Shown one piece after another: positions 1 to 48,978 of a stretch of DNA of 64,000 nucleotides (positions are counted from its first letter, which is position 1; each line of letters begins with the position of its first letter). The notes beneath the pieces are model-generated. The model saw nothing but the letters and a program-made list of their open reading frames with translations, ran no database searches and was not told the origin of the DNA. Source of the stretch: a virus. Lineage: Duplodnaviria > Heunggongvirae > Uroviricota > Caudoviricetes. The translations under genes and the position numbers were made by a program. The stretch covers positions 1 through 64,000 of IMG/VR virus record IMGVR_UViG_2563366895_000001; one strand, written 5' to 3'.

Positions 1-286
1 ATTGAAAATTTATCGGTTTCTTTATTAGGATGAAGTAACAGACTCCTGACATAGCTACCACCATTCTAAAGAGGCTTTGAACAAGAATAGAGATACAGCA
101 GCACTGAAATCAAGAAGTTGTGCAAAAAATAAAAATATTGATTTGTGTCACAGTTGCTGCTTTTTATTATTGAATTTTTATCAATTTCACTACAGATAAA
201 TAAATTGACATAGTGTGTAACCCCTGTAAATATAAAGGGCACTTTATCTGCTAAAGCCAACCAATTTAAAAATAGAGGGTGGGAGC

Positions 287-976: not shown

Positions 977-1029
977 GATGCAGAGAGTTAGGATATTGAT
1001 ATGAACATCTAAGCACCTCATTACTGTGC

Positions 1030-1701
1030 TTAAAAGATGTTATCCTTACCTGTTAATTTACCTTGAGGAACTTTAGTGAGCTCCATCCGATAAAATGCTT
1101 TTATCATATTTACAAATGGCTCATATGGTGAATATTCGTTGTCTTGTTTAGTAACGGTGTCTGTCATTGTCCTGATGTAGTCTGCGCTTACCACGTTGTT
1201 GTATTCTGTTGCGAAGCAGCATAACAACGTCAGAACATGCTCTGTCGTTATTTCGCTCCAGTTGATGTTGAAAAACTCATCGCCTTTTTTATCGTGTTCG
1301 GAATCGAAGATGCTTTGGTGGAGGATGTATTTGCCGGATTCCTTGCGCGGTAACTTGATCGCTTTCTGGCGTTCCAACTCCTTGTAAATCTGCATTGCTT
1401 CAATTAGTACCGGCCTGCCGTTCATGAAGGGATCGCGCAACCTTACACGCTGGCCAACTCGACCGGTAATAAAGCTGTTTTCCTCTTCCACCAGCACGAT
1501 AAAACCCTTTTCCTCTTTTTCTCGCAATTCGCGCAGCAGCTGGAGTTCCATATCGCGGCGGCGTTCAGGGTAGCTGGTCCGCTCAGCCATTATCAGCTCG
1601 TTGTTGATCCATGCAGCAGTCATTGACGCCGGTTTGCCGACGCTCATCGAAACAACGCATATTTTCTTATCCATAGCGCCCCTACAAAAAAGAAAAGCCA
1701 C
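1030..1701 (-). CDS. Hypothetical protein (start uncertain; ATG at 1674 would give 214 aa)
   Basis: 223-aa ORF in six-frame track; no motif recognised by eye. Confidence 0.45.
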   Translation of the reverse strand: MAFLFCRGAMDKKICVVSMSVGKPASMTAAWINNELIMAERTSYPERRRDMELQLLRELREKEEKGFIVLVEEENSFITGRVGQRVRLRDPFMNGRPVLIEAMQIYKELERQKAIKLPRKESGKYILHQSIFDSEHDKKGDEFFNINWSEITTEHVLTLLCCFATEYNNVVSADYIRTMTDTVTKQDNEYSPYEPFVNMIKAFYRMELTKVPQGKLTGKDNIF

Positions 1702-1956
1702 CAGCGGCGGCTTAGCAATACAACTGAAGGTAGCGCCCGGTACTCAGACTGTGCCGTCCATGGAATATTTGAAAAGGGATCCATCCGTACCGGGCTTGAT
1801 GTGATTTTGGCAGAAGTAATTTGTCAGATGTCAATTTTTTTATCTGTAAAAATGCTATAAACCAATATTTCTATTATTTTTTATATGGTTGCAGTAGTAG
1901 AGTCTGGGCTATTCCTGCGTCCGGTCTTGATGACCACAAATCACGGAGATTGATTA

Positions 1957-2511
1957 ATGAAAAATCGTAGTTTCAACATCATCGCTTCTATTGCTATGGC
2001 TCTAATGTTAACAGGGTGTAACCAGTCAGAGATTGATAAACTCTCACTTATCGGTGAAGACAAGAGTTATCTTGAAGAACAGGACGAAGCCACTTTTGAA
2101 AAACGGACTCCAGACATAGAACTTTTTGCATTATACGATAAATCGTCACCTGACGCTCAGGAACCACATACCACAGGAATGTTGATTAATGGCAAGGTTG
2201 AGTTGAGCATGACAACAAAAGTTGGCAAATATACCTTTATGCAATTAGATGAAATGCTTACAAAAGAGTATGGGAAACCTGTTGCGACGAAGGACCATAT
2301 CTTTGATAAGGCTGCAATCTCTGGTTTGGACTGCATTGAAACTAAAACCTGTGGTGCTGGTAAGTATTATGAAGTATTCCGAGGAAAGGATCGGTTTGTA
2401 TTATTGATTAATGGAGCTGGTTATTTGTACGAAAAAGAAGGGGTTGCATTGCTTACTATCACGGACAAACAATTAAAAGTTGCTCGTCTGGAAGAGGACA
2501 AAAAACATTAA
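1957..2511 (+). CDS. Lipoprotein
   Basis: N-terminus MKNRSFNIIASIAMALMLTGC is a signal peptide with L-x-G-C lipobox; 184 aa. Confidence 0.6.
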   Translation: MKNRSFNIIASIAMALMLTGCNQSEIDKLSLIGEDKSYLEEQDEATFEKRTPDIELFALYDKSSPDAQEPHTTGMLINGKVELSMTTKVGKYTFMQLDEMLTKEYGKPVATKDHIFDKAAISGLDCIETKTCGAGKYYEVFRGKDRFVLLINGAGYLYEKEGVALLTITDKQLKVARLEEDKKH

Positions 2512-2518
2512 CAAACAG

Positions 2519-2534
2519 GGGCATACGCGCCCCA
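2519..2534. terminator. GC hairpin between convergent genes (possible bidirectional terminator)
   Basis: ggggcatacgcgcccc followed by A/T-rich tract, between the + lipoprotein gene and - ref. Confidence 0.3.
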
Positions 2535-2557
2535 ATATTTTAAAAATAATAAATATA

Positions 2558-3118
2558 TTAGTGCATGATATTTGCCATCTCATAGGCGTCAGCCAGCAAC
2601 TCCATCTCTGACTTGTTCAGCAGGGTGAATTCTTTCTTGCCTCCAACCACACCATCGGCATGAACAGGGACCAGCCAGGGGTATTTTTCTCTTACTTCAG
2701 CCGGTGCTGCATGCTGGTGGTGCCATCTACAAAGGGGCAATTGCTTTTTGTGACAACCCGGCGCGGTACGACCGGAGATATGGTGCAGAGACACCTCTTC
2801 AGATATTACTCCATGCATGTAGCAGGCAATGCAGGGGAGAGTGCCAAGAGCATTGGCGATGGTCCGTTCCTCCGCCGTCGGTGTTCGCCCCTTCAAGCCA
2901 CGAGATTTTATTTTTACCGCACTTTTCCGCGTTTTGCTGGCTGGTGGGCGCTCTTTCTGTTTAGCGATACGGCGGTCGATAGAATCCCGCATTTTCTGAT
3001 ATTGCGATTCTCGCCAGGCGGGGTCAGCCAACTTTTCCCGTTGCCGAGCGATCGCTCGTTCTCTGGCTGCCTTCTGCCACTCGCGGCGCTGTTCAAGTTT
3101 TTGTTCGATTGTTTTCAT
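2558..3118 (-). CDS. ref: Ref recombination-enhancement function, HNH-family endonuclease
   Basis: Begins MKTIEQKLEQRREW at the internal ATG (3118) of the 221-aa track ORF, giving 186 aa; cysteine/histidine-rich C-terminus (CIACYMHG...HHISGR...CRWHH); position downstream of cre as in P1; the upstream ATG at 3223 lies upstream of the promoter/operator. Confidence 0.8.
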   Translation of the reverse strand: MKTIEQKLEQRREWQKAARERAIARQREKLADPAWRESQYQKMRDSIDRRIAKQKERPPASKTRKSAVKIKSRGLKGRTPTAEERTIANALGTLPCIACYMHGVISEEVSLHHISGRTAPGCHKKQLPLCRWHHQHAAPAEVREKYPWLVPVHADGVVGGKKEFTLLNKSEMELLADAYEMANIMH

Positions 3119-3123
3119 ATGGC

Positions 3124-3149
3124 AAAAAAAAGGCGGCCTAATGGCCGCC
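3124..3149 (-). terminator. Intrinsic terminator-like hairpin plus T8 run in the ref leader
   Basis: Minus strand reads GGCGGCCATTAGGCCGCC followed by TTTTTTTT, ending 5 nt before the ref ATG; lies between the putative ref promoter/operator and the start codon. Confidence 0.4.
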
Positions 3150-3216
3150 AATGATGTCAAGGAGTGAAGTAATGGCAACGTCTTCGTAGTTGACAAAAAC
3201 TGCGACTCAATTATAG

Positions 3217-3233
3217 CAACCAATTAGAGCAAT
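3217..3233 (-). promoter_or_regulatory. C1 operator-like site overlapping putative ref promoter
   Basis: Plus strand caaccAATTAGAGCAAT (11 of 17 consensus positions); minus strand has gctataat -10 immediately downstream. Confidence 0.45.
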
Positions 3234-3364
3234 TAAAGTTGTTTATTTATCGCGAATCACATTTTTTCACTTCAGTACCTGTGTGCTATACTCCTTCTTG
3301 ATTGATTGGATGCGGAATACAAACCCGCTCTTTTGTGCAGCCTGGCTCCTTGCCAGGCTTTTTT

Positions 3365-3676
3365 TTATTTCATCATGGAAGCTGTTAACGCTTTGGACCT
3401 TGCTGAACTGATTGAGAGGGCTTTGTCAACGTGCCCCAAAAATTCGCCAAACTCAGACATCACTTTAGCAAAACCGCGCCGTGCTTCTTCCTCGGTGGCA
3501 TTCATCACGAAATGTTCAGCACCACGCATACTTTTGACAGGGAACGCAACGGATATTGAATCAATATCAGGCATTCTATCGCTCAGCTTTACAGTGACAA
3601 TGACGGCTGGCGACTGAATATTAGTGCTTACAGACAGCACTACATATTTTCCGTCGATTTTGAAATCCTTTCTCAT
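3365..3676 (-). CDS. Hypothetical protein downstream of cre (c8-like position)
   Basis: 103-aa ORF; operator-like site at 3693-3709 just upstream. Confidence 0.45.
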   Translation of the reverse strand: MRKDFKIDGKYVVLSVSTNIQSPAVIVTVKLSDRMPDIDSISVAFPVKSMRGAEHFVMNATEEEARRGFAKVMSEFGEFLGHVDKALSISSARSKALTASMMK

Positions 3677-3692
3677 ATGTCACCATAAATAT

Positions 3693-3709
3693 CAAAGAAT
3701 TAGAGCAAT
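3693..3709 (-). promoter_or_regulatory. C1 operator-like site (partial match)
   Basis: caaagaATTAGAGCAAT between the cre stop and the 103-aa ORF. Confidence 0.35.
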
Positions 3710-4987: not shown

Positions 4988-5082
4988 TTTTCACCTCTGA
5001 TTGATTGGTGGTGCTAAGTGCGCTACGCGAAATCTGTAGGACTAACACCGCCAACTTTGCACAGATTTTACGTAGCGCAACC

Positions 5083-5106
5083 TTGATCAAATGATCAAGT
5101 GATCAC
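5083..5106. promoter_or_regulatory. Cluster of three Dam (GATC) sites in the cre upstream region
   Basis: ttGATCaaatGATCaagtGATCac; consistent with the methylation-sensitive cre promoter known for P1. Confidence 0.4.
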
Positions 5107-5591: not shown

Positions 5592-5801
5592 ATGGCTTTC
5601 ATTCAACCAACCATCGACGACGTTAGACATTGCTCTAACGCTTTATCTGTAGACCCTGCCGAAACCGACGCTGCCCGCGCCATTGCTGAACACTACTCAA
5701 AGATATCCAATCAGGAGTACCGCATCACCCAAGACGACCTGGATGACCTCACTGACACAATCGAATATCTCATGGCAACTAACCAGTTGGACTCACAATA
5801 A
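5592..5801 (+). CDS. coi: Coi, C1 inactivator
   Basis: 69-aa ORF directly upstream of c1 on the same strand, downstream of C1 operators. Confidence 0.8.
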   Translation: MAFIQPTIDDVRHCSNALSVDPAETDAARAIAEHYSKISNQEYRITQDDLDDLTDTIEYLMATNQLDSQ

Positions 5802-5911
5802 ATGCACTAATAAATCTATTATTTTTGTTTGATCCCTCTATAATATAGGTCAGTAATGACCGGTTTTCTCAGCCGGGCGTTATTGACCATGTCAATTCTG
5901 GAGGAGGATCA

Positions 5912-6763
5912 ATGATAAATTATGTCTACGGCGAACAACTGTACCAGGAGTTCGTCAGCTTCAGGGATCTCTTTCTAAAAAAAGCTGTTGCACGCGCCCA
6001 ACACGTTGATACAGCCAGCGACGGTCGTCCTGTACGCCCGGTTGTCGTTCTACCGTTCAAAGAAACTGACAGCATTCAGGCTGAAATTGATAAATGGACT
6101 TTAATGGCGCGGGAACTGGAACAGTACCCAGACCTCAATATCCCAAAGACTATTTTATATCCAGTGCCTAACATCCTTCGCGGTGTGCGTAAGGTTACAA
6201 CTTATCAGACAGAGGCTGTGAACAGCGTCAACATGACCGCTGGCCGCATTATTCATCTGATTGATAAGGACATTCGCATCCAAAAAAGCGCGGGGATCAA
6301 TGAGCACAGTGCGAAATACATAGAGAACCTGGAAGCAACAAAAGAGCTAATGAAGCAGTACCCGGAGGATGAAAAATTCCGTATGCGCGTACACGGCTTT
6401 AGCGAAACAATGCTGCGCGTCCACTACATTTCCAGTAGCCCTAACTACAATGATGGTAAATCAGTTAGTTACCATGTGCCACTGTGTGGCGTGTTTATCT
6501 GCGATGAAACTCTCCGTGATGGAATTATCATCAACGGTGAATTCGAAAAAGCAAAATTTAGCCTTTATGACTCCATAGAACCGATCATCTGCGACCGCTG
6601 GCCGCAAGCAAAAATATATCGCCTGGCAGATATTGAAAATGTAAAAAAACAAATTGCCATCACTCGCGAAGAGAAAAAGGTTAAGTCAGCCGCATCAGTT
6701 ACGCGCAGCCGTAAAACCAAGAAGGGGCAGCCAGTAAACGACAACCCCGAAAGCGCGCAATAA
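5912..6763 (+). CDS. c1: C1 repressor of lysis
   Basis: 283-aa ORF (MINYVYGEQLYQEFVSFRDLFLKKAVARAQHVD...), length and context as P1 C1; its operator is scattered across the window. Confidence 0.9.
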   Translation: MINYVYGEQLYQEFVSFRDLFLKKAVARAQHVDTASDGRPVRPVVVLPFKETDSIQAEIDKWTLMARELEQYPDLNIPKTILYPVPNILRGVRKVTTYQTEAVNSVNMTAGRIIHLIDKDIRIQKSAGINEHSAKYIENLEATKELMKQYPEDEKFRMRVHGFSETMLRVHYISSSPNYNDGKSVSYHVPLCGVFICDETLRDGIIINGEFEKAKFSLYDSIEPIICDRWPQAKIYRLADIENVKKQIAITREEKKVKSAASVTRSRKTKKGQPVNDNPESAQ

Positions 6764-6795: not shown

Positions 6796-7911
6796 TTATT
6801 CAGCCGCCACCGGTTTTAACAAGCCAGCATCGAGCAGTTTACGCGTCAACCACTGCTGGCCTTTACCCGTTAATTGAGGCGTCAACCGTATCTGGTAGCC
6901 ATCTTCATCATCCAGCACCACTTCTTTCACCGTGAAATACCCCGCGTTGATGTACTGCTGGAACGGCACATTTTTACGTCCACCGGACGCTATCAGGATG
7001 CCGTTCTCCCGTAACCAGGCAAACAGCGCGTTTTGCTTAAGTCCAACAACCTTTGCAAAATTCCCAATCAGGATCCCTTTAGCTACTGATACCCGGTCGG
7101 CAAAATCGACTTTAGGAGCGGCGGCCACCAGCTGCTGATTTAGCTGGTGGGCTTTCTGTTCCAGAAGCTGCTTTTGTTCAGCCAGTTCGGCAGCCAGGCG
7201 TAGGGCTTCTGGTAATGTTTGGGGGATTGCAACCGGTTGCTGTTCTTTTTGTCGGAAGTAGCTGTCTTCCAGTTTTTCAAAGAATGCCCATGCCTGATCG
7301 GTTTCGATCATTTTAGCGTGGCGGGCTGCGCCGCGTTCCGTCCAGAGGATGAGTGAGCGGGCTTTAGGAGAGATAGGATTTTGTGAGTTACTTAAAGTCA
7401 CTCGCAAATTGTTCAAATCATCTCCAATAACTTTATAGAAATGCTTGCCTTCACAAAAACGTTCAGCATTACGGGAAAAGTTCTTCTTGATGTTATCCGC
7501 ATCTGTCCCATACCCCTTAGCAAGGATCTTAGTTGTCACTACACGCACTCCCAGCCATTCCAGAACGGGAATTTCATCAGACTGATTCTGAACAACCACC
7601 AGCTCCGATTCCTGAACTGAAGGTGCATGAGTTTTTTCTGATTTAACGTTAGTTGCTTTCATTCTGTGTGCCTCCTTGCGTGTTTCGGCTGCGACGGTTG
7701 CGTAATTCAGATGCCCCTGTTCGAGCAGGTATTCGCGGATATCAGACAACAGAATGCGGTGAACAGCGTTCTTGTCCTTTCTCCGGTAAAGTTGTTTGGT
7801 GATCATGAAGTAGTTGGCAATAACGCCCGGTATATCCCTGGTACTGATACAGGATGTGTGCTGTTCAATTGCCTCAATCATTTCTTCACGGGTGACTAAT
7901 GACGTTCTCAT
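6796..7911 (-). CDS. Antirepressor-like protein (KilA-C type C-terminal domain), paralog of immI Ant
   Basis: 371 aa; C-terminal about 95 aa nearly identical to Ant at 53426-54463 (GILIGNFAKVVGLKQNALF...GYFTVKEVVLDDEDGYQIRLTPQLTGKGQQWLTRKLLDAGLLKPVA) and related to KilA. Confidence 0.7.
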   Translation of the reverse strand: MRTSLVTREEMIEAIEQHTSCISTRDIPGVIANYFMITKQLYRRKDKNAVHRILLSDIREYLLEQGHLNYATVAAETRKEAHRMKATNVKSEKTHAPSVQESELVVVQNQSDEIPVLEWLGVRVVTTKILAKGYGTDADNIKKNFSRNAERFCEGKHFYKVIGDDLNNLRVTLSNSQNPISPKARSLILWTERGAARHAKMIETDQAWAFFEKLEDSYFRQKEQQPVAIPQTLPEALRLAAELAEQKQLLEQKAHQLNQQLVAAAPKVDFADRVSVAKGILIGNFAKVVGLKQNALFAWLRENGILIASGGRKNVPFQQYINAGYFTVKEVVLDDEDGYQIRLTPQLTGKGQQWLTRKLLDAGLLKPVAAE

Positions 7912-8129
7912 AGTCCCTCCTGAGCAGAAGCGTTAACAGGGAGGCACCAGTAACTGAGAGAGTTGCGCGAATCAGTGGAAAAGCGGGCAGAGAAAATGCA
8001 GGGAGCGTCAGGAAGCTGAGAACGGGCCTCATCTTCTGTCGGTGCAATAACGAAGTGATAGTGACGTTTCTGGCAGGAATAGAAGCGCCAGATGAATTCA
8101 GGATGAGTTGGGGTAGGGACAGTAGCCAT
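7908..8129 (-). CDS. Icd-like small protein (paralog of the icd at 54460-54681)
   Basis: 73 aa; shares EFIWRFYSCxKxHYHFVIAxTEDEARSQLPDxPCIFxARFSTxSRNSLSYW with the other 73-aa ORF; stop overlaps the ant-like start; RBS aaggagg. Confidence 0.55.
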   Translation of the reverse strand: MATVPTPTHPEFIWRFYSCQKRHYHFVIAPTEDEARSQLPDAPCIFSARFSTDSRNSLSYWCLPVNASAQEGL

Positions 8130-8313
8130 AATGGCAGCCTCCTTTGACTAAGTTAAGGAGCTACCGCGTGAGGTCTCAATCTCAATGGCGGTAGCACTGA
8201 CTGGGTTGAGACTACCGGCGTCAAAGGGAACCGGCCTGCCTTTCGGCAGCCCAGCCAGCACTACCATTGATTTCGGAGCTAAACGCTACGTATGGCTGTG
8301 CGATGGCATGACA

Positions 8314-8450
8314 CAAAAAAAGACGCTTTCGGCGTCTGTGTCGCCTTTGACATTATCCGGGGTCTCAATCCCGGCACCCGTTTTAATGAGGTGCCTGATA
8401 AGCATAAACCGAAAATGCCTCAAGGCGCAAGAGGTCAGGTTCAATGTAAC
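8314..8450 (-). ncRNA. c4-like antisense RNA region of the second immI-like module (approximate)
   Basis: Leader between the C1 operator (8469-8485) and the icd-like start; minus strand has hairpin CCGGGATTGAGACCCCGG, then terminator GACGCCGAAAGCGTC plus T7, then downstream complementary GTCTCAAC near the RBS. Confidence 0.35.
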
Positions 8451-8468
8451 ATCGGTAGTTAAAAAACA

Positions 8469-8485
8469 CAATTTATTAGAGCAAA
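8469..8485 (-). promoter_or_regulatory. C1 operator upstream of the icd/ant-like module
   Basis: cAATTTATTAGAGCAAa. Confidence 0.55.
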
Positions 8486-8488
8486 TAT

Positions 8489-9973
8489 TCATTCATTAAG
8501 CCATGCCAGAGCTTCATCAACCTGCGCTTCGTCTTCGACGCTAAGCACTTCATCCTGGGGAACATAATCCGCCAGCATAGCGAAACAATATGTATCCCAA
8601 TGGTCTGGTGAGTGCAGGTTGAGTTTTTTCTTCATATCCTCCTTACTCATCACCTTCCATTGACCTGCGGAGTTAATCCCTACAGGGATTTTCGACGCTT
8701 CCTCAATAGTTTCATTACCCTTATCCAGTCTCATACGACCAGATTTTACGGCCTCTGCGGCTTGAACGTTGGCATAAGCACGTTTATCAAAGTACAGGCT
8801 CTTATCTTCACGGCTATGCATCTTTTTACCCCAGCGTATGCGCTGTACGGTAATACCATAATACTCGTACATCAGATCCGCCGTTGCTTTACCCAGGCCA
8901 TCGCCGTCTATCGCTATGGTGATATTTGGGAATCGCTCAGGATTACATTCTGCGAAAATTTTGGCGGCAAGCTGCGTTTCTGTAACGTCTGTGTATTCCA
9001 GCATTCGATAGTTGATTACACGGCGTTTATTTCGCTGGCCGGACACCATCATGATATTGATAACGGACTTATCCCGTCCTGTACCACCAGCAACGTCCAC
9101 ACATGCAAGCCAGCCCCATCCTTTGGCAATCTTGACTTTCCGCCGCGTCGCACGTTCAACCTCATCACGTCCAAGAAGGAAGCCGTCCTGTGATTTAGGG
9201 AATAGCCCGCGTACCTTAATCATGTACATAGGGTTATCACGCCCGCCGTACTCCGCCAGCTTCATTTTGATAAATGCTGGCGTTACCAGCGGTGATTCCT
9301 CACTGTTAAGCGTGATCGCCGTATAAACGCCATCAGGGTTACCAGGACGCTTGGCCAGTTTATGGTGAGTATCGTAGAAATAGCCGCTTGGGCGTGTAGG
9401 CTGTGACAGTAATAAGATGCGGTTATCCTGTCCGGTAAGAGCACCAGTGATGATACCGAAAGCTCTATCACTGACACCGGAGGCTTCATCGATAATATAC
9501 AGAAGATGATCTGCGTGTTCACCGGCGAGAGCTTCTTCACTTCCCAGACGAAAGCCCTTCGGTACTACAGTCCATACACCTTTACCAGTAACCTCATAGA
9601 AAGCGGTTTCTGTCAGAACAAAATAATCAGCAAGCCATGGAAAACGGCTGGTGGCAGTAGCCCAGTTTATCTTGATGTACTTGAATATACCGGTCATTAC
9701 CTGCTGAATTTTGTTCGCAACGATAATGGCGCGGGCACCGGGATACATGATTATGAACAACATGATCATGATAGAAGTCATGTCTGATTTCCCGGTACCG
9801 TGACCAGACGAAACAGATGTCTTGCTACCCTGTTCCTGCACAGACTCAATAATCAGATCCTGCTGCCAGGTAGGTGTTTTGCCGAACAAAACATCAGCGG
9901 CCGCAATCCAGTCATAACGATATAGCGCCACCAGCTCGCGCCAACGTGGATCCGTTACGCAACTTCTGGCCAT
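8489..9973 (-). CDS. pacB: PacB, terminase large subunit
   Basis: 494-aa ORF whose start overlaps the pacA stop; gene order as in P1. Confidence 0.85.
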
Positions 9974-11166
9974 TAATCATCATCCCCGTATAGCTTGCGG
10001 GTAACTTCTTCGTCTTCCTCCTCGTCTTCGTCCAGGTCTTGTTCCAGCCATGGGTCGTTTGATACACCTTCAGTATCAACATCTCCATAACCGCCTGTAT
10101 CAACAATATCGGCGATTTCTTCCCTACGCTGCTCAATCCACAATGCGGCATCGGCGCGGCGGTTGGCGGCCCGTTCTCGCGCAACTTTGTCCAGATCTTC
10201 AAGAGAAGGGCCACCGACGGCTGTTTGCCTTTCCTCATCATCGGTATTGGTCTTAGGAGCACGCAGATCGGCTTTGATTTGCTCCAGCATCAGGGGCGGT
10301 ACTTTCCCTCCATGCGCCTCGATGAATTCAGCTGCCTCCAGCACTGACCAGTTGTTTTCACGCTTTCGTTCGTATGCCAGCTTAACAATGCCAGCTTGCC
10401 CCATAGACAAAGCGTGCTTTTCCGCCTCCCGGCTTTCTTTTCGATAGTTATTCCGGATGCTGTAAATGGTGTTGATCAGGCTGCTTATCTGCGCGGAACA
10501 GCTGTTTAGCATGCTCGCGATACGGTATTCAGGCGGAGTACCTTCATCATCGTCTTTTTGCTGATCGCGCATTTCCTGCACCAGGCGAATACACGTATCC
10601 CTGGCGTTCTCCAGCATAAGGAGATGAGAAAGAGACTTTTCCAGAAGAGTGGTTTCCAGAACATCAGCTCCGGAACGACGCAACATAGCGCGCGCGGCCT
10701 TCCGCGCTTCAACGTTATCTATCAGGTAATCGCCAGCTTCGAATTCAAAGCGTTCACCATCATCATCCAGGGTGTCGCGTTCCAGGCGATCACGTAAGGT
10801 CCGGTGGGCGCGGGTGATCACGTCATGATCATCTGAACGATCATTTATGCGCTTATTTTGGCGCTTCGCGTTCTCGACTGCGGCACTGACAACAGCATTA
10901 ACTCTTTGTTTTTCTGCCATTTCAGCCGCAATATGATCACCTGCATGTTGATCATTAGAGTGATCAATGATCATGCTTTTTAGTGGCTTCCTGACTGGCT
11001 TATTTGGCTTGCGGCTGTCCACAGTCCTGGTGTCTTCTTTGAAGGCACGGAGATAACGACGTGCGGTATTAGGGTTAAGATTAAACTCGGCGGCATACTG
11101 TGCGATGGTGTAACCACCATCTCGCGCCAGGCGAGCAAAATTCTTCTTGTGATCGTCCCAGGTCAC
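9973..11166 (-). CDS. pacA: PacA, terminase small subunit / pac-recognition protein
   Basis: 397-aa ORF with acidic C-terminus; contains the pac site within its coding sequence. Confidence 0.85.
10815..10973. other. pac: pac packaging site (hexanucleotide TGATCA/G elements with Dam sites)
   Basis: Seven TGATCA-type hexamers in two clusters (three at 10815-10843, four at 10934-10973) inside pacA, about 5.6 kb from loxP. Confidence 0.75.
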
Positions 11167-11792: not shown

Positions 11793-12836
11793 TTATCTAA
11801 CACTCGACGAGTGACTTGTGATAGCGCCGACTCCAAGCGCGTAATCAAAGAACAATCGTTGATGCATCGCCAGCCTACCGTGCGTCTTCTCCCAATTATC
11901 GCGGTCACGCTCAATATCACGCTGGCATGACTGGCACAGAGGAATTGCGTAAATGTCATGCGCGCATAATCGACTATGACGAACGATATAAGGCGTAATG
12001 TGAGCGCCAGCTCCCGCCGCTCCACACCCACAGCATGGACGGGAAGCAACAAAGTCCATGTACTCAGGTAATTTTAGCGATTGCAGTTTTGGTATTTTGA
12101 AATGCGCCATGCCAGGGTCGGAGTCAACATCCACAGGGCATACTTTTGCACGCATCGGCGCGGCGCGTTCTTCCATCATCTGAACATATGCTGTAGCGCG
12201 ATCGTCATACGGGCGAATATCCGCCTCTTTCAGAGGTCCGCTATCCTGCGTTGCGGCTTTCATCTTATTTATTGATATACGGCAAACTTCTTCCGGCATC
12301 AGGTGCATCATGTTGCGCATGAAAGCCCACCAGCACAGTTCCTGAATACTTAAATCATGGCCATCTGAAAGCCCCATTTCCTGACGGGCGACATCCAGTA
12401 TCCAGTTAACGCGATTATTATGCAGCGTTTCTTTCAGCTCATTAAAACCACGCATCCGGTAATGGTTATCGTGATGCCAGCACAACAACACCGCGCTCTT
12501 GTCTCGTTCAGCGTGGACAATATGGTTGTCACACCAACTACGATCTGCGGCCTGGCATTGCCCCTCTTTCCTGCGCAACCACGCCACCAGCGCGTCAATT
12601 CCACCAATACGGCGAAACAGTTCATCGCTGTTAAAAAACGGCTGCAACGCCTCATTTGTTGCCATAGTTTGCTCGGAAAAAACGAGGCCGTCGTCCATGT
12701 GCTCGATTAACTCACGCGGCACCGGCTCCATAATAAATTTACGGCCAGCCTCCACCAGCTTTCTGACTTCCTGATCCACTTTGAATGTGGCGACGCCAAG
12801 CTCTTTTTGTACAAAGGGAGTAATTACGGCTTTCAC
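11793..12836 (-). CDS. Cysteine-rich protein (PdcB-like, post-doc position)
   Basis: 347-aa ORF; C-terminal cysteine clusters CCGCG...CAHD...CQSCQ. Confidence 0.5.
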
Positions 12837-12863
12837 ATCACACCTTTCATCACTGATTGGGCT

Positions 12864-13064
12864 TTATCTGCTGCCCGGCATTCTCTGTTTAAGCACAACC
12901 ATTTCCTGACGGCATAACACAGCAATAGCGGTCCTGACACCAACTTGCTTACCAACCAGGTATTGCTTTACCTCGCGGCGACTCACGCCATCAAGAAGCA
13001 TCTTTAACGCTTCACGGGACAATTTGTTGTATTTGCGTGCCATTAATCTACTCCGCAGAACCAT
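12864..13064 (-). CDS. Small ORF downstream of doc (start uncertain)
   Basis: 66-aa track ORF overlapping the doc 3' end. Confidence 0.3.
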
Positions 13065-13428
13065 ACAATCTACGTAACGTGTCGGCGACAGAAGATACAG
13101 ATATCTCGCCAGTCGCAGCGCCTACAGTAAGGTCTGCCAGTTCAGGTGAATCAAATACCTGCACCCCGTTACGGCGTAGAAATAGCAGCGCACTGTTTAG
13201 CGCGGTACGCTTATTGGCATCATTGAATATATGCCCTCTCGCTGTAGCCACCAGGTAGGTGGCGGAGACTTCGAAAAGGTCGGTGATCTCTTCGTAGGCA
13301 ACTCTGGCCTGAACTCTCCCGATAATGGCCTCTGCCCTACCCGGATCTGACATTCCCGGCAGGCCGCCGTAGCGGTTTATATTCGCATCATGAAGCGCAA
13401 TAAGTTCTTCCGGTGATATATGCCTCAT
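13048..13428 (-). CDS. doc: Doc toxin (Fic-fold kinase, death on curing)
   Basis: 126 aa, [39 protein letters not shown]... with Fic-type motif [12 protein letters not shown]; start overlaps the phd stop. Confidence 0.95.
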
Positions 13429-13649
13429 TATCGGTTAACCAGTTCCTTGTTGGTGGAGTCCAGGGTGTCAAACAGGGATGCAAATTCAGCATCCAGCGCC
13501 GCTTTTTTGTAGGCTTCGAAAGTAGCCTTGCTGACAATTACTGCTGGCTCACGGCCTCTGCGGGTGATTTCAACCTCTTCCCCGGCCTCAACATTGTTGA
13601 GCACTTCAGAAAGGTTGCCGCGCGCGGTACGGAAGTTAATGGATTGCAT
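13428..13649 (-). CDS. phd: Phd antitoxin
   Basis: 73 aa from the ATG at 13649 ([28 protein letters not shown]...); the track start at 13655 is a GTG. Confidence 0.9.
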
Positions 13650-13655
13650 AAACAC

Positions 13656-13682
13656 CTCGTGTACTTGTTATGTGTACACAAT
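13656..13682 (-). promoter_or_regulatory. phd-doc promoter/operator with GTGTAC palindromes
   Basis: Minus strand tgtGTGTACACataacaaGTACACg directly upstream of phd. Confidence 0.4.
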
Positions 13683-13825
13683 TATAAACTTCACAGGCAT
13701 AAAGCGCCAGCACTTTGCGGCTTAACAAAACTCTAGGCAGGTCATTCATAGCCTAATGTCCGAACTGTTAAAGCCACCAAGTTGTTGTAGAATCACATCC
13801 AATTACATAAGCCTGAAATAAGTGG

Positions 13826-15388
13826 ATGAAAATGACAAGTATTCAACAACGTGCAGAGCTTCATCGTCAAATCTGGCAAATTGCTAACGATGTCAGGGGT
13901 TCGGTCGATGGATGGGATTTTAAGCAATACGTTCTGGGCGCACTTTTCTACCGTTTTATCAGCGAAAATTTTTCCAGCTATATTGAAGCCGGTGATGACA
14001 GTATCTGTTATGCGAAACTGGATGACAGCGTAATTACTGATGACATTAAAGACGATGCCATCAAAACTAAAGGCTACTTCATCTACCCCAGTCAGCTTTT
14101 CTGCAACGTAGCTGCGAAAGCAAATACCAATGACAGACTGAATGCAGATTTAAACAGTATCTTCGTTGCTATCGAAAGTTCTGCTTACGGTTATCCTTCA
14201 GAAGCTGACATCAAAGGTTTGTTTGCTGATTTCGATACCACCAGTAACCGCCTGGGTAACACCGTTAAAGATAAAAATGCCCGCCTGGCTGCGGTTCTGA
14301 AAGGGGTTGAAGGGTTAAAACTTGGTGACTTCAACGAACATCAGATTGACCTGTTCGGTGATGCCTATGAGTTCCTGATCTCTAACTATGCGGCAAATGC
14401 CGGTAAGTCAGGCGGCGAGTTCTTTACACCGCAGCACGTTTCTAAGCTGATTGCACAACTGGCTATGCACGGGCAGACCCACGTTAACAAAATCTACGAC
14501 CCGGCAGCAGGCTCCGGTTCGCTGTTGTTGCAGGCTAAAAAACAGTTTGATGACCATATCATCGAAGAAGGTTTTTTTGGTCAGGAAATCAACCATACGA
14601 CCTATAACCTGGCGCGTATGAACATGTTTTTGCACAACATCAACTACGACAAGTTTGATATCAAGCTGGGCAATACGCTGACTGAGCCGCACTTCAGAGA
14701 TGAAAAACCGTTTGATGCCATCGTTTCTAACCCGCCGTATTCGGTGAAATGGATTGGCAGCGATGACCCGACGCTGATTAACGATGAACGTTTTGCCCCG
14801 GCTGGCGTTCTGGCCCCCAAATCCAAAGCTGACTTTGCGTTTGTATTACATGCGCTGAACTATCTTTCTGCCAAAGGTCGTGCTGCGATTGTCTGCTTCC
14901 CGGGCATTTTTTACCGTGGCGGCGCAGAGCAGAAAATCCGTCAGTATCTGGTCGATAATAACTATGTCGAAACCGTAATTTCACTGGCACCGAACCTGTT
15001 CTTTGGCACCACCATTGCCGTAAACATTCTGGTTCTGTCTAAACATAAAACGGATACCAACGTTCAGTTTATTGACGCCAGCGAACTGTTCAAAAAAGAG
15101 ACTAACAACAATATCCTGACCGATGCCCATATCGAACAGATTATGCAGGTATTTGCCAGCAAGGAAGATGTTGCTCATCTGGCGAAATCTGTCGCGTTCG
15201 AAGCCGTTGTCGCGAATAACTATAACCTGTCGGTGAGCAGCTATGTAGAATCGAAAGATAACCGCGAAATTATCGATATTGCTGAGCTGAATGCGGAACT
15301 GAAAACCACGGTCAGCAAAATCAACCAGTTGCGTAAAGATATTGATGCGATTGTGGCTGAAATTGAGGGCTGCGAGGTGCAGAAATGA
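13826..15388 (+). CDS. hsdM: Type I restriction-modification methyltransferase subunit HsdM
   Basis: 520 aa; N6-adenine MTase motifs [10 protein letters not shown] (motif I) and VSNPPYS (motif IV). Confidence 0.92.
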
Positions 15389-16641
15389 GCGAGTTAAGTT
15401 ATCTGGAAAAATTGCTGGATGGGGTTGAGGTTGAGTGGAAACCCTTGAAGGATGTTTGTGATTTTAAAAATGGATTTGCATTTAAAAGCAGCTTATTTAA
15501 AGAAACTGGGTTACCGATAGTTAGAATCACAAATATAGATGGATTTAATGTTGACTTAGATGAGGTGAAATACTTTTCACTAAATGATTACAAGGAAGAT
15601 TTATCCTCCTTTGAGGTATCTATGGGAAATATATTGATTGCAATGTCAGGTGCCACTACAGGAAAAGTGGGAATTTATAAAAAAGGAACAAAATGTTATC
15701 TTAACCAACGGGTTGGGAAATTCATACCCAAAGAAAATATTCTAAACAATAATTATTTATACCATTTTTTATTGTTAAATACAGAGACTATTTATATCCT
15801 CGCCGGGGGCGGAGCACAACCGAATCTAAGCTCAAATGCATTGATGTCAAAACTACTCATCCCAATTCCCTGCCCGGATAATCCGGAAAAATCCCTTGCC
15901 ATCCAGTCTGAAATCGTTCGAATTCTGGATAAATTTACTGCACTTACCGCTGAGCTTACCGCTGAGCTTAACATGCGTAAAAAACAGTACAACTACTATC
16001 GCGACCAGTTGTTGAGTTTTAAAGAGGGTGAGGTTGAGTGGAAGACTTTGGGGGAAATTGGGAATTTTACCCGAGGTAAACGTTTTGTTAAAACAGATAT
16101 GCTTTCTGAAGGTTATCCATGTATTCATTATGGAGAAATGTATACTTATTACAACGTATGGACAAATAAAACAAAGTCATTTGTTAGCCAAGAACTGGCA
16201 AGTAAATTAAGAGTTTCAGAGTATGGTGATGTGATAATTGTTGCTGCCGGGGAAACAATTGAAGATATAGGAAAAGGAACAGCCTGGTTGGGTAAATCAA
16301 ATGTTGTTTTTCATGATGCTTGCTTTTCATACAGATGCTTACTAAACCCTAAATATATTGCATACTTTACTCGAACAAAAATATTCCATGATCAAATAAA
16401 AAAACACATATCTTCAGGAAAGATATCCGCAATTAACGCAAATGGGTTATCCAAGGTAAAAATACCTATGCTTTCAGCGAAGGAACAAGCTCGCATTGTC
16501 GAAATACTCGATAAATTCGACACCCTGACCAACTCCATCACCGAAGGTCTCCCGCGTGAAATTGAGTTGCGCCAGAAACAATACGAATACTACCGTGATT
16601 TACTGTTCAGTTTCCCGAAACCTGAAACTGTCAGTAATTAA
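15385..16641 (+). CDS. hsdS: Type I (IC-family) specificity subunit HsdS
   Basis: 418 aa; two target-recognition domains each followed by a conserved helix ([26 protein letters not shown] and [19 protein letters not shown]); start overlaps the hsdM stop. Confidence 0.9.
15943..15968 (+). repeat. Tandem 12-bp repeat (CTTACCGCTGAG x2) encoding the TAEL-TAEL spacer of HsdS
   Basis: Direct tandem duplication in the central conserved region of hsdS. Confidence 0.75.
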
Positions 16642-16762
16642 TTGACCATTGCTACCGATCGGGCCACCTTAACACCCGGTCAGTATATAGACTATTTTTT
16701 ACGCGCCGGAAGTCACTCTTAACGCCCTTCCGGCTCTTGCCAGGCGGCACAAAGGATGCGCT

Positions 16763-19700
16763 ATGACTCATCAAACACACACCATTGCTGAATCCAATAA
16801 CTTTATCGTCCTTGATAAGTACATCAAAGCTGAGCAAACAAGCGACAGCTACCAGAGCGAATCGGACCTGGAACGTGAACTGATTCAGGACCTGCGGAAT
16901 CAGGGTTATGAATTTATTTCCGTAAAATCACAGTCGGCAATGCTGTCTAATGTTCGGGAACAGCTTCAGAGCCTCAATGGTGTGATGTTTAATGACAGCG
17001 AGTGGCGGCGCTTCACGGAGCAGTATCTGGACAACCCCAGCGATGGTATTCTGGATAAAACCCGTAAAATCCATATCGACTATATCTGCGACTTTATTTT
17101 TGACGACGGGCGACTTGAGAACATCTATTTGATAGATAAAAAGAATCTCATGCGCAATAAGGTGCAGATTATCCAGCAGTTTGAACAGACGGGTTCTCAT
17201 GCTAACCGTTATGACGTCACGATCCTGGTTAATGGTTTACCGCTGGTGCAAATCGAACTAAAAAAACGCGGGGTGGCGATTCGTGAGGCTTTCAACCAGA
17301 TACATCGTTACAGTAAAGAGAGTTTTAACAGCGAAAATTCCCTGTTTAAGTATCTGCAACTGTTTGTCATTTCTAACGGCACCGATACCCGTTATTTTGC
17401 CAACACGACAAAGCGCGATAAAAACAGTTTTGACTTCACCATGAATTGGGCGAAATCAGACAACACGCTGATTAAAGACCTCAAAGACTTTACCGCTACC
17501 TTTTTCCAGAAACATACTCTGCTGAATGTTCTGGTGAACTACAGCGTTTTTGACAGTAGTCAGACGCTACTGGTGATGCGACCGTACCAGATTGCCGCCA
17601 CCGAGCGCATTCTGTGGAAAATTAAGAGTTCCTTTACAGCGAAGAACTGGTCAAAACCGGAAAGCGGTGGGTATATCTGGCACACTACCGGTTCTGGTAA
17701 AACCCTCACCAGCTTTAAAGCCGCGCGTCTGGCAACAGAGCTGGACTTTATTGATAAAGTCTTCTTTGTGGTCGACAGGAAAGACCTCGATTACCAGACC
17801 ATGAAGGAATATCAGCGTTTTTCGCCAGACAGCGTCAACGGCTCGGAAAATACCGCAGGCCTTAAACGAAATCTGGATAAGGACGATAACAAAATTATCG
17901 TCACTACTATTCAGAAACTCAATAACCTGATGAAAGCAGAAAGCGACCTGCCTGTATATAATCAGCAAGTGGTGTTTATATTTGATGAATGCCACCGCAG
18001 CCAGTTTGGAGAAGCGCAGAAAAACCTGAAGAAGAAATTCAAACGCTATTATCAGTTTGGTTTTACCGGCACCCCTATTTTCCCGGAAAACGCCTTAGGC
18101 TCAGAAACAACCGCCAGCGTATTTGGTCGTGAATTGCATTCGTATGTAATTACCGATGCGATTCGTGACGAAAAAGTGCTCAAATTCAAGGTGGACTACA
18201 ACGATGTGCGACCACAGTTTAAGTCTTTAGAGACAGAAACTGACGAGAAAAAACTAAGTGCGGCTGAAAATCAGCAGGCGTTTCTTCATCCCATGCGTAT
18301 TCAGGAAATCACGCAATATATTCTGAATAATTTCCGCCAGAAAACCCACCGTACCTTCCCTGGCTCAAAAGGTTTTAATGCTATGTTGGCAGTGAGCAGC
18401 GTGGATGCCGCGAAAGCCTATTATGCGACGTTTAAACGGTTACAAGAAGAAGCCGCTAATAAATCGGCTACCTATAAACCGCTGCGTATTGCGACAATCT
18501 TCTCCTTTGCCGCCAATGAAGAACAAAATGCCATTGGTGAAATTTCCGATGAAACTTTTGATACCAGCGCAATGGACAGCAGTGCTAAAGAGTTTCTGGA
18601 CGCTGCAATTCGTGAATATAACAGCCATTTTAAAACTAACTTTAGCACCGACAGTAACGGTTTTCAGAACTACTATCGTGATTTAGCCCAACGGGTTAAA
18701 AATCAGGATATCGATCTGTTAATTGTCGTGGGAATGTTTTTAACCGGCTTCGATGCTCCAACATTAAACACGCTATTCGTCGATAAAAACTTGCGTTTTC
18801 ACGGCCTGATGCAGGCATTCTCCCGCACCAACCGCATTTATGACTCGACTAAAACCTTCGGTAATATCGTCACGTTCCGGGATCTGGAACGCTCAACCAT
18901 TGATGCCATAACGCTGTTTGGTGACAAAAATACCAAAAATGTGGTTTTAGAAAAGAGTTATGCAGAGTATATGGAAGGCTTTACTGATGCTGCCACTGGT
19001 GAAGCTAAACGCGGCTTCATGACAGTAGTTTCAGAACTGGAACAACGGTTCCCTGACCCTACCAGTATTGAAAGTGAAAAAGAGAAGAAAGACTTCGTTA
19101 AACTGTTTGGCGAATACCTGCGTGCCGAGAACATCCTGCAAAACTATGATGAATTTGCCACGCTAAAAGCCCTGCAACAAATCGATCTTAGCGATCCTGT
19201 TGCGGTAGAAAAATTCAAAGCAGAACATTATGTGGATGATGAAAAGTTCGCTGAATTGCAAACAATTCGTCTCCCTGCTGAACGCAAGATTCAGGATTAT
19301 CGTTCTGCCTATAACGATATTCGCGACTGGCAGCGCCGTGAGAAAGAAGCTGAGAAAAAAGAGAAATCAACCACTGACTGGGATGACGTGGTTTTTGAGG
19401 TCGATTTGCTGAAGTCTCAGGAAATAAACCTGGATTATATCCTTGGACTGATTTTCGAACACAACAGACAAAATAAAGGCAAGGGCGAAATGATCGAAGA
19501 GGTCAAGCGCTTAATTCGTTCAAGCCTGGGGAACCGGGCGAAAGAGGGCCTGGTGGTCGATTTTATTCAGCAAACGAACCTGGATGATTTACCAGACAAA
19601 GCCAGTATCATTGAGGCATTCTTTACGTTTGCTCAACGCGAACAGCAACGTGAAGCAGAAGCATTGATCAAAGAAGAAAATCTCAATGAAGATGCAGCAA

Positions 19701-19879
19701 AACGCTATATTCGCACGTCTTTAAAACGCGAATACGCCACCGAAAATGGCACAGAATTAAACGAAACATTACCAAAACTTAGTCCGTTGAATCCGCAATA
19801 TAAAACGAAAAAACAGGCAGTTTTCCAGAAAATCGTCTCGTTTATTGAGAAGTTTAAAGGCGTAGGCGGAAAAATATAG
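16763..19879 (+). CDS. hsdR: Type I restriction endonuclease/translocase subunit HsdR
   Basis: 1038 aa; superfamily-2 helicase motifs (HTTGSGKT Walker A, DECH box) and N-terminal nuclease region. Confidence 0.92.
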
Positions 19880-19892
19880 CCCAATTCGTGTT

Positions 19893-19925
19893 TTTCTTGC
19901 GGGTTCTTAATTAAACCCGCAAGAG
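19893..19925. terminator. 11-bp-stem inverted repeat downstream of hsdR
   Basis: tcttgcgggtt-cttaattaa-aacccgcaaga; no clean U-tract. Confidence 0.3.
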
Positions 19926-19958
19926 CTCGTGGGGTTCCAAATGGCTAATATACTCCCC

Positions 19959-20045
19959 TTACCCATGCGCGACGATGCCGCCAAAAGTGATAGAGAACAG
20001 CCAGAAATAGATCGCGGCCATAATGATTTTGAATGCCGTGTTCAT
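19959..20045 (-). CDS. Small hydrophobic peptide (28 aa), candidate membrane peptide
   Basis: ATG preceded by AGGAG at 7-nt spacing; MNTAFKIIMAAIYFWLFSITFGGIVAHG; below the 60-aa track cut-off. Confidence 0.25.
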   Translation of the reverse strand: MNTAFKIIMAAIYFWLFSITFGGIVAHG

Positions 20046-20127
20046 ATTTTCAGCTCCTGTGATTGATTGGATACATGCCGCGCCTTGCGGCATGTTTTTA
20101 TTTTCACTTTCTCTGTTTTAAAAATCA

Positions 20128-20144
20128 AGATTTATTAGAGCAAT
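20128..20144 (-). promoter_or_regulatory. C1 operator
   Basis: agATTTATTAGAGCAAT, 16 of 17. Confidence 0.55.
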
Positions 20145-20650
20145 TATTGTTGATGAAGAAGCGCATTTTCGTACTCTCTGACCATTAACGTAAGCACGCC
20201 GTGATGCCTGAAAACACGCGCTACTTCAATCTTATCTTCCAGCGCGAACGCAATTTTACTTAGACCAATTTTCTTAAGGAGATCAATCTTTGCTGGACCA
20301 TCATTTCTGTCATCGGTGGCAGGACGCATAGATAGCAAAGGCTCAGCCCCATTTGTTACGTGCTTACGCAACCAGGCTCGTGTTTTATCCCTGGCTATCT
20401 CACAGCGCCCGGTTACAAACCAGAGCGTGTAAATGCTGGACAACTGGCGCACCATATCAATAACTGGAGTGATGGGAGCATCAGTGTCACAGGCAAGGTT
20501 AAACTCGTTCCAGTGCTCTGTTAATGCACCTTTGCCAGGTGGTGGAAGTAAATGCAACCTGTCTTCCGTTGCCTCTGATATCGTCCCATCAATATCTACT
20601 ATGACGATGTACGGACGTTCCTGGTGTGCGTGTTTATTGTAAATACTCAA
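20144..20650 (-). CDS. HAD-superfamily phosphatase (Pap-like)
   Basis: 168 aa; motif I IVIVDIDGT near the N-terminus. Confidence 0.55.
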   Translation of the reverse strand: MSIYNKHAHQERPYIVIVDIDGTISEATEDRLHLLPPPGKGALTEHWNEFNLACDTDAPITPVIDMVRQLSSIYTLWFVTGRCEIARDKTRAWLRKHVTNGAEPLLSMRPATDDRNDGPAKIDLLKKIGLSKIAFALEDKIEVARVFRHHGVLTLMVREYENALLHQQ

Positions 20651-20723
20651 ATGCCCTCCTCATTGGACGAAAAAAAATGCTGGTGGGCGCACTCCACCAG
20701 CATTAAAAGTGACACTGTAACCA

Positions 20724-48350: not shown

Positions 48351-48385
48351 AGGAGGAGGCCGGAGAACTCCGGCCTTTAACTTGA

Positions 48386-48967: not shown

Positions 48968-48978
48968 AAGGATTTTAT

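Follow-up and report, generated by a model that had tools for sequence, protein, structure and literature searches.

Families of type I restriction-modification (R-M) systems were originally delimited by complementation between subunits, cross-reacting antibodies and DNA hybridisation. Type IC enzymes recognise asymmetric, bipartite sequences, which they modify with m6A on both strands, and their ATP-dependent cleavage occurs at a distance from the site. Among the type IC systems, EcoR124I recognises the half-sites GAA and RTCG, and type IC hsd loci are reportedly flanked by P1 DNA, as Tyndall is said to have described in 1997. To our knowledge, EcoR124 provides the sole HsdS structure solved for type IC, and its target recognition domains (TRDs) are unrelated to those of the HsdS described here. 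Two TAEL units in HsdS produce the N6 spacer of EcoR124I and three the N7 spacer of EcoR124II; three units are also found in EcoDXXI, which has an N7 spacer, and in EcoprrI (PMC3874165).

In the 64,000-nucleotide stretch of viral DNA analysed here as a whole (hereafter, the window), the hsdM, hsdS and hsdR genes were all intact and located on the same strand, in that order (Table 1). The hsdM stop and the hsdS start share 4 bp (ATGA), and hsdR is set apart from hsdMS by a short gap, as expected from the type IC gene order. The ORF list and the annotation agreed in placing phd-doc to the left of this operon and a pap homologue to its right.

Table 1. Positions, strands and supporting evidence for the hsd cassette and its P1-homologous surroundings in the window.
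Feature	Position	Strand	Remarks and evidence
doc, P1 addiction-module toxin	13048-13428	-	left P1-homologous flank; ORF list, P1 alignment and annotation
phd, antitoxin	13428-13655	-	promoter region reaches ~13709; ORF list, P1 alignment and annotation
non-P1 hsd cassette, 6229 bp	13726-19954	+	BLAST breakpoints versus P1
hsdM, N6-adenine methyltransferase subunit, 520 aa	13826-15388	+	EcoR124 HsdM identity, Pfam, PADLOC
hsdS, specificity subunit, 418 aa	15385-16641	+	EcoR124 HsdS alignment, Pfam
hsdS TRD1, N-terminal target recognition domain, ~aa 23-147	15451-15825	+	EcoR124 HsdS alignment
hsdS central conserved region, ~aa 148-227, first coiled-coil helix	15826-16065	+	EcoR124 HsdS alignment
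12-bp tandem repeat CTTACCGCTGAG, 2.3 copies, (L)TAEL-TAEL	15943-15970	+	Tandem Repeats Finder
hsdS TRD2, C-terminal target recognition domain, ~aa 228-366	16066-16482	+	EcoR124 HsdS alignment
hsdS C-terminal conserved region	16483-16641	+	EcoR124 HsdS alignment; one substitution
hsdS-hsdR spacer, 121 bp	16642-16762	+	promoter-like site 16669-16698; promoter scan, weak match
hsdR, translocase-nuclease subunit, 1038 aa	16763-19879	+	PDB 2w00_A match, Pfam
perfect inverted repeat, 10 bp, CTTGCGGGTT/AACCCGCAAG, 8-nt loop	19896-19923		read from sequence
right P1-homologous flank	19955-20143	-	P1 alignment and annotation
pap homologue, HAD-type polynucleotide phosphatase	20144-20650	-	ORF list, P1 annotation, Pfam

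All three proteins fall in type I subunit families, according to Pfam and PADLOC. HsdM is identical to EcoR124 HsdM (PDB 7bst_D) at 515 of its 520 residues (99.0%), and exhibits the motifs DPAAGSGS and NPPY together with the domains HsdM_N and N6_Mtase (Pfam) and MTase_I (PADLOC). HsdR matched PDB 2w00_A over its full length (2283 bits), with 13 substitutions relative to EcoR124 in the 968 residues displayed (~98.7% identity). The motifs TGSGKT and DECH were found in this protein, as were the Pfam domains HSDR_N, ResIII, SWI2_SNF2, T1R_D3-like and, at the C-terminus, EcoR124_C (PF12008, E = 1.1e-71, residues 728-1031). HsdS, in which Methylase_S was detected in two stretches, aligned over its full length with EcoR124 HsdS (PDB 7bst_A, E = 3.7e-80). 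The three conserved regions of HsdS (N-terminal, central and C-terminal) match those of EcoR124 exactly or almost exactly: residues 148-227, including LTAELTAEL, do not differ at all, and residues 367-418 carry one substitution. In contrast, both TRDs diverge in the alignment and show no sequence relationship to the EcoR124I TRDs; the recognition half-sites must therefore differ. As judged from this similarity to structurally solved EcoR124I/II subunits, the operon is a type IC R-M system of the EcoR124 family.

The same gene order is found in EcoR124I and EcoR124II (R124, R124/3), and EcoR124I also has two TAEL units; however, these systems are carried by a conjugative plasmid, whereas the carrier here is P1-like. 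EcoDXXI, located on pDXX1, and EcoprrI both differ from the window HsdS by their third TAEL unit. EcoprrI is, moreover, a chromosomal member of the family that carries the prrC anticodon nuclease; the window cassette lacks prrC, and a prrC-type insert between hsdS and hsdR was ruled out, since the gap measures just 121 bp.

P1 homology, as determined by BLAST, ends at window position 13725 and resumes at 19955, which correspond to positions 2226 and 5714 of the P1 locus used for comparison. The cassette takes the place of 3487 bp of P1 (2227-5713 of that locus) containing humD, lxr, hot, upfO/N/M and pmgV/U/T, a segment described as 'variable region 8' of P1-like phage-plasmids (PMC9603915). 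The initial annotation had read the locus as a complete type IC operon between phd-doc and a pap-like gene, swapped in as defence cargo at the humD/lxr/hot site of P1, with a tandem 12-bp repeat encoding LTAELTAEL in the central conserved region of HsdS; on all of these points, it was borne out. The junctions match the misc_features of the P1 GenBank record (1549-2227 and 5714-5933 of the P1 locus) for the hsd flanks of EcoDXXI and R124/3: EcoDXXI shares both the upstream and the downstream junction with the window, and R124/3 shares the P1 homology of the right flank. Identity to P1 was 97.5% over the flanks as a whole and 97.6% for window positions 12000-13725. No direct or inverted repeats signalling site-specific insertion were found at the cassette junctions, and homologous recombination in the P1 flanks is the simplest entry route. 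The right flank retains the C1 operator Op88 (20128-20144) and the PpmgT promoters, the latter now being aimed at the 3' end of hsdR. Further into the window, positions 25001-50000 aligned with P1 OP279344.1 with 89% coverage and 98.2% identity, an alignment that takes in dmt, ban and parA. Domains of a Cre-type integrase, of ParA and of a KilAC antirepressor were also found, and by homology the carrier is a P1-like phage-plasmid (Punavirus).

At least 80% of window positions 13000-21000 (phd-doc/hsd/pap) was present in 226 PLSDB plasmids and two sequenced phages. The phd-doc/hsdMSR/pap arrangement is shared by the Escherichia phages phi456 and vB_EcoM-673R5 and by pWL164-2, an independent plasmid that is 100% identical to the window over positions 12000-22000, hsdS included. 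In phi456, 673R5 and all the PLSDB plasmids, at least one TRD differs from that of the window, the best hsdS coverage being 61-66%. Relatives of hsdS were also located at 899 chromosomal places in complete genomes, and chromosomal relatives are common in E. coli. Homologues of the C1 repressor, terminase and Lpa are annotated in pWL164-2. The res/mod genes of P1 are not annotated in this near-identical plasmid, and hsd may therefore be the element's only R-M system. A literature search on the protein accession and the plasmid name returned nothing relevant.

Overall, we consider with a probability of about 0.88 that the locus represents a complete, probably active EcoR124-family system of type IC, which a P1-like phage-plasmid carries as cargo in one of its known variable slots. 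Function is favoured because the ORFs are full length, contain the catalytic motifs and are ~99% identical to a characterised enzyme. By analogy with EcoR124I, two HsdM subunits and one HsdS would make up a methyltransferase acting on both adenines in a bipartite target, and the addition of HsdR would yield an ATP-driven translocase-nuclease cutting unmethylated incoming DNA. Each HsdS TRD would read one half-site, with the distance between the TRDs fixed by the two helices of the conserved regions. Two TAEL turns are predicted to give the EcoR124I spacing, with methylated adenines 7 positions apart; for half-sites of 3 and 4 bp, this corresponds to an N6 spacer. If unequal crossing-over or slippage added or removed a 12-bp unit, the spacer would become 1 bp longer or shorter and a new specificity would result; further specificities would arise when recombination in the conserved regions exchanged TRDs. 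The cassette itself probably spreads among P1-like elements and other plasmids through homologous recombination in its P1-derived flanks.

The repeat was detected by Tandem Repeats Finder with a period of 12, 2.3 copies and 100% matches, and is in frame with hsdS from codon 187, giving LTAELTAEL. The 24-mer CTTACCGCTGAGCTTACCGCTGAG is present once in the window (15943-15966) and had no match in 100 dinucleotide-preserving shuffles. Among relatives, we observed sibling alleles with one, two or three TAEL units in three TRD lineages, the flanking HsdS sequence being 98-100% identical and the DNA differing by exact 12-bp units. These lineages share the central region with the window HsdS, and two of the three also share its TRD2 (99-100% identity). 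A pair with one and two copies was found within the same P1 slot, and three-copy alleles with the identical 12-bp unit are present in P1-context plasmids (e.g. CP098997.1). In addition, a five-copy tract was observed in one hsdS copy disrupted by IS1. Plasmid alleles with two and three units appeared to be about equally common, these counts being estimates from the BLAST identity bands of synthetic queries, cross-checked against each other; the one-unit query joined two pieces across longer tracts, scored 100% identity and gave no usable count.

These siblings speak against the alternative that survives best, namely that the repeat is a fixed coiled-coil spacer, stable at two units and of no practical use as a switch, with diversification proceeding by TRD exchange only. 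The steps of 12 bp, even within the P1 slot, the five-unit tract and the similar frequencies of two- and three-unit plasmid alleles tell against it. However, the two-copy form of the window allele, present on 12 contigs, is the sole form on record among ~15 billion proteins, in which no one-, three- or four-copy form of this exact HsdS was found. Moreover, a two-unit linker occurs in 91 of the 120 closest HsdS clusters, and two 12-bp units offer little scope for slippage next to the tracts of classical phase variation. On balance, a fixed spacer seems doubtful. The specificity switch put forward in the initial annotation is thus upheld for the family, by the published spacer rule (PMC3874165) and by natural siblings with one, two and three copies; for this allele, no copy-number variant appeared in the databases searched. 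The TAEL switch is real for the EcoR124 family but rare, and with two 12-bp units, changes in number arise from infrequent recombination or slippage, unlike in a fast phase-variation tract.

It could also be supposed that the cassette is a passenger, silent or in decay, which is unexpressed or non-functional and is kept only by hitch-hiking with phd-doc. Several relatives do have interrupted or truncated hsd genes, with IS1 in one related locus (L009) and IS1203, ISVsa5 or ISKpn26 beneath the match in plasmids, and carriage alone is no proof of function because of such decay. The promoter and terminator scan of the hsd region returned no more matches than in shuffled sequence and detected no strong promoter; regulatory assignments in the cassette are tentative for this reason. 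A separate hsdR promoter is weakly suggested by the promoter-like site in the hsdS-hsdR spacer. The inverted repeat sits just past the hsdR stop, and on neither strand does a T-run come after it. Against a passenger stand the three full-length ORFs with catalytic motifs, their ~99% identity to a characterised enzyme and the unchanged copy in pWL164-2, which together make this reading very unlikely.

It is scarcely credible that the system acts mainly as a phasevarion-like epigenetic regulator with phage defence secondary, a role proposed for repeat-bearing type I systems with TAEL as an analogy (PMC7383803), since hsdR is intact, the documented phenotype of the family is restriction (PMC3874165, PMC12707154), this allele shows no population-level variation and, in place of a many-unit tract with high-frequency length change within a strain, we found 2.3 units of 12 bp and variation between lineages only.

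Returning to the EcoR124-family system carried as phage-plasmid cargo, its specificity appears to lie in an uncommon combination of common parts. TRD1, the DNA of which is low in GC (0.36), was found at 98-100% identity in ~45 other 90%-identity clusters among those listed, with different TRD2 partners. Similarly, TRD2 was found at 97-100% identity in ~40 other clusters listed, with different TRD1 partners, and these included the series with one, two and three copies. Both TRDs are thus widespread with other partners, and their pairing here is rare. It is conceivable, if unlikely, that this pairing confers a type I recognition sequence not yet characterised and that the P1-like cassette switches among one-, two- and three-unit forms at measurable frequency; we know of no natural one-unit form that has been characterised as a wild-type enzyme. 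If this were true, a temperate phage-plasmid could use switching to alter, in a reversible manner, its host's restriction barrier as well as the methylation imprinted on the phage-plasmid's own virion DNA.

The description of the cassette and its repeat is correct but ordinary, as both are textbook features published since 1989-1997, and the significance beyond bookkeeping is small. In public data, the TAEL range comprises one, two, three and, in a broken gene, five identical units; the survey backs the classical model with population data but adds no new concept to it. The element provides another case of type IC specificities being shuffled and carried by P1-like phage-plasmids, and its cassette probably helps plasmid-bearing strains to keep out incoming DNA.

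The hsdMSR operon proposed in the initial annotation was found complete at 13826-19879, between phd-doc and the pap homologue, as three ORFs on the plus strand. hsdM and hsdS overlap by ATGA, and a gap of 121 bp separates hsdS from hsdR. Type I subunit models (PADLOC) fit all three proteins, and the Pfam domains identified were HsdM_N and N6_Mtase in HsdM, two Methylase_S matches in HsdS, and HSDR_N, ResIII, SWI2_SNF2, T1R_D3-like and EcoR124_C in HsdR. Catalytic motifs were present in the translations of HsdM (DPAAGSGS, NPPY) and HsdR (TGSGKT, DECH).

Features of the window considered here, with their positions
Feature	Position	Strand	Description
EAL-domain ORF	287-976		within region 1-3700
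Antirepressor	6796-7911		KilAC/ORF6N; intact
pacB	8489-9973		intact
pacA	9973-11166		intact
hsdM	13826-15388	+	ORF, 520 aa
hsdS	15385-16641	+	ORF, 418 aa
Direct repeat in hsdS	15423-15466, 16026-16069		44 nt, 75% identity
24-mer	15943-15966		CTTACCGCTGAGCTTACCGCTGAG
Tandem repeat in hsdS	15943-15970		period 12, 2.3 copies, 100% identity
Promoter-like site	16669-16698		hsdS-hsdR gap; weak
hsdR	16763-19879	+	ORF, 1038 aa
Right flank	19955-20144		C1 operator and PpmgT promoters
C1 operator Op88	20128-20144		AGATTTATTAGAGCAAT
Dmt homologue	33653-36694	-	1012 aa
DDE transposase ORF	49642-50760	+	IS4-like IS421 by pWL164-2 annotation

All three proteins aligned over their full length with EcoR124 subunits. 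Only 5 substitutions in 520 residues separate HsdM from EcoR124 HsdM (PDB 7bst_D; end to end), and HsdR aligned end to end with EcoR124I HsdR (2w00_A; 2283 bits), of which the alignment displayed 968 residues, 13 of them substituted. HsdS (7bst_A, E=3.7e-80) matched mainly in three parts: the N-terminus, residues 148-227, which were identical, LTAELTAEL included, and residues 367-418, with one substitution; both target recognition domains (TRDs) were essentially unrelated to those of EcoR124. The GC content of the TRD-coding DNA was 36%, versus 44-50% in the surrounding DNA. As judged from these alignments, the cassette encodes a type IC system in which the EcoR124 framework carries TRDs of another kind. 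The two copies of an internal direct repeat of hsdS code for GVEVEWKPL and GEVEWKTL segments; this repeat mirrors the way HsdS is built from two duplicated halves, and offers one more substrate for recombination.

The hsdS allele was found in only one of 5426 complete E. coli genomes, on plasmid pWL164-2, and the highest coverage by any PLSDB plasmid was 66%. The exact protein, already a RefSeq entry, occurred on 12 contigs of a 5.8-billion-cluster protein collection, and a near-identical protein on 1. When HsdS was split into parts and compared across its best 120 relatives, the N-terminal TRD1 was found at 98-100% identity with unrelated TRD2s in about 45 other clusters, and the C-terminal TRD2 at 97-100% identity with unrelated TRD1s in about 40 others. 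Both TRDs thus circulate widely, and what is rare is their combination in this allele; such TRD mosaicism is the classical route of type I diversification (PMC3874165).

The 12-bp repeat noted in the initial annotation was recovered by Tandem Repeats Finder; it lies in the central conserved region of HsdS, in frame from codon 187, and codes for LTAELTAEL. The corresponding 24-mer is present once in the window and was matched in 0 of 100 shuffles. The effect of unit number on the spacer is well established: EcoR124I, with two TAEL units, recognizes GAA N6 RTCG, and EcoR124II, with three, GAA N7 RTCG (PMC3874165; PMC7383803). EcoDXXI and EcoprrI have three units each (PMC3874165). Hybrids conform to the prediction, and unequal crossing-over is given as the cause of the change (PMC3874165; PMC7383803).

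Unit number was derived from the linker length between the ILDxF and RKKQY anchors in the 120 closest HsdS clusters, where linkers of 9, 13 and 17 residues (one, two and three units) occurred in 14, 91 and 13 clusters, respectively. Three TRD lineages each contained members that differed in unit number, with HsdS 98-100% identical on both sides of the linker: lineage A, with one (P0013) or two units (P0008, P0010), and the chromosomal lineage B, with one (P0079), two (P0053) or three (P0070); lineage C had one (P0107) or two (P0089). No three-unit form of A or C was found. Lineage C, whose TRD2 is 99% identical to that of the window, lies in a window-like context (pacA-lpa-pdcB-pdcA-doc-phd / hsd / pap-pmgS), so that repeat-number variants, which the initial annotation had suggested looking for, exist in the same P1 slot. 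At the DNA level, variants differed by exact 12-bp steps (CTTACCGCTGAG, plus CTTAGCGCTGAG, plus a second CTTAGCGCTGAG).

One-unit alleles were not rare (P0013 on 47 contigs, P0079 on 21, P0107 on 1) and were observed in chromosomal and P1-like contexts (loci L005, L006, L010). To our knowledge, the wild-type type IC enzymes characterised have two or three units only. Synthetic queries, in which unit number was altered and the window's own flanks were kept, matched 38 plasmids at at least 99% identity and 357 at at least 95% with three units, including CP098997.1 within a P1-context hsd locus, and 332 at at least 95% with two; complementary 80-90% bands were concordant (338 and 372). By this identity-band estimate, plasmids carry two-unit and three-unit alleles with roughly the same frequency. 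The longest tract, five identical units, was observed in the same P1 slot of plasmid NZ_CP010234.1 (locus L009, 9000-20000; about 5040-5100 in locus coordinates), in a decayed cassette with hsdS broken by IS1 and hsdM truncated N-terminally, and fits drift after loss of selection on the protein.

The proposal that the repeat is a specificity switch was upheld at the level of the family, by the rule and the sibling variants, but only the two-unit form of the window allele is recorded. Exact look-up among about 15 billion proteins returned this form and no one-, three- or four-unit version of the window HsdS. There was no sign of switching in this element. With only two 12-bp units, the tract is not a high-frequency phase-variation tract. 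Sequence comparison indicates that the TAEL tract varies on evolutionary timescales across the family, P1-borne copies included.

Nucleotide identity shows the window to be a phage-plasmid of the P1 type: the cassette flanks are 97.5% identical to P1, and for positions 25001-50000 the match to P1 covers 89% of the length, with 98.2% identity. Homology to P1 stops at 13725 and restarts at 19955, and the P1 counterpart is a 3487-bp segment with humD, lxr, hot, upfO, upfN, upfM, pmgV, pmgU and pmgT, so the P1 gene content given in the initial annotation was correct. The P1 GenBank record marks exactly these two boundaries as homologous to sequences upstream and downstream of EcoDXXI hsd, and likewise to the sequence downstream of R124/3 hsdR. 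Tyndall et al. (1997; title cited in PMC12707154) reportedly described this homology of the EcoDXXI and R124/3 hsd flanks. No repeats were found at the junctions of the cassette with P1 DNA. A survey of P1-like phage-plasmids lists the replaced block as "variable region 8" (PMC9603915).

Plasmid pWL164-2, from a human E. coli isolate, is 100% identical over window 12000-22000. Elsewhere in this near-identical plasmid (33440-45940, locus L013), an EAL-domain gene and small ORFs replace the P1 type III res-mod between ref/mat and darB, and the darB homologue is frameshifted. The window also has the EAL-domain ORF, and the type IC system may therefore be the element's only restriction-modification system. 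In pWL164-2, a deletion has fused the remnants of an antirepressor gene and a terminase gene (region 47978-49451, compared with window 6796-11166); with antirepressor, pacB and pacA intact, the window comes from a close but less degraded relative. The DDE transposase ORF interrupts the P1 backbone close to where the homology to P1 ends. The homologue of P1 Dmt, a fused C5-cytosine and Dam-type N6-adenine methyltransferase, holds what looks like an intein, complete with a homing-endonuclease domain of the LAGLIDADG type (Pfam Hint_2, LAGLIDADG_3); the intein interrupts the catalytic PCQ motif (...GGTP / CFTAGHM...NGAVVHN / CQAFS...). This full-length form is also present in P1 OP279344.1 (100% coverage), while phages RCS47 and vB_EcoM-Ro157c2YLVW have it as two pieces (99%); reference P1 (AF234172) and P7 cover just 66% of the protein.

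At least 80% of the phd-doc/hsdMSR/pap stretch was present in 226 plasmids of PLSDB, as well as in the two sequenced phages phi456 and vB_EcoM-673R5, and at least 80% of window 1-25000 was held by 108 of the 5426 E. coli genomes. Type IC hsdS matches were found in 1303 of these genomes, at 899 chromosomal and 677 plasmid places.

By homology, M2S1 would methylate a bipartite target and R2M2S1 would translocate and cut unmodified DNA, and the two-unit helix predicts an EcoR124I-like spacing, in which 7 positions separate the methylated adenines (PMC3874165, Table 1). Type IC enzymes do not need ClpXP to become established in a naive host (PMC12707154), a property well suited to carriage on a mobile element. 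In the region of the promoter-like site between hsdS and hsdR, sites of this kind were no more numerous than in shuffled sequence. The right flank keeps Op88 and the PpmgT promoters of P1 without the pmgT-pmgV operon, and these are now directed at hsdR from its 3' side; one may speculate that induction leads to C1-controlled antisense transcription into hsdR.

Overall, the observation was confirmed, and the reading of a type IC system as swapped P1 cargo with the family's specificity repeat was supported. Each of its elements is documented in the literature and databases: the enzyme family, the flanking P1 DNA, the rule for the repeat and the variable nature of the slot.
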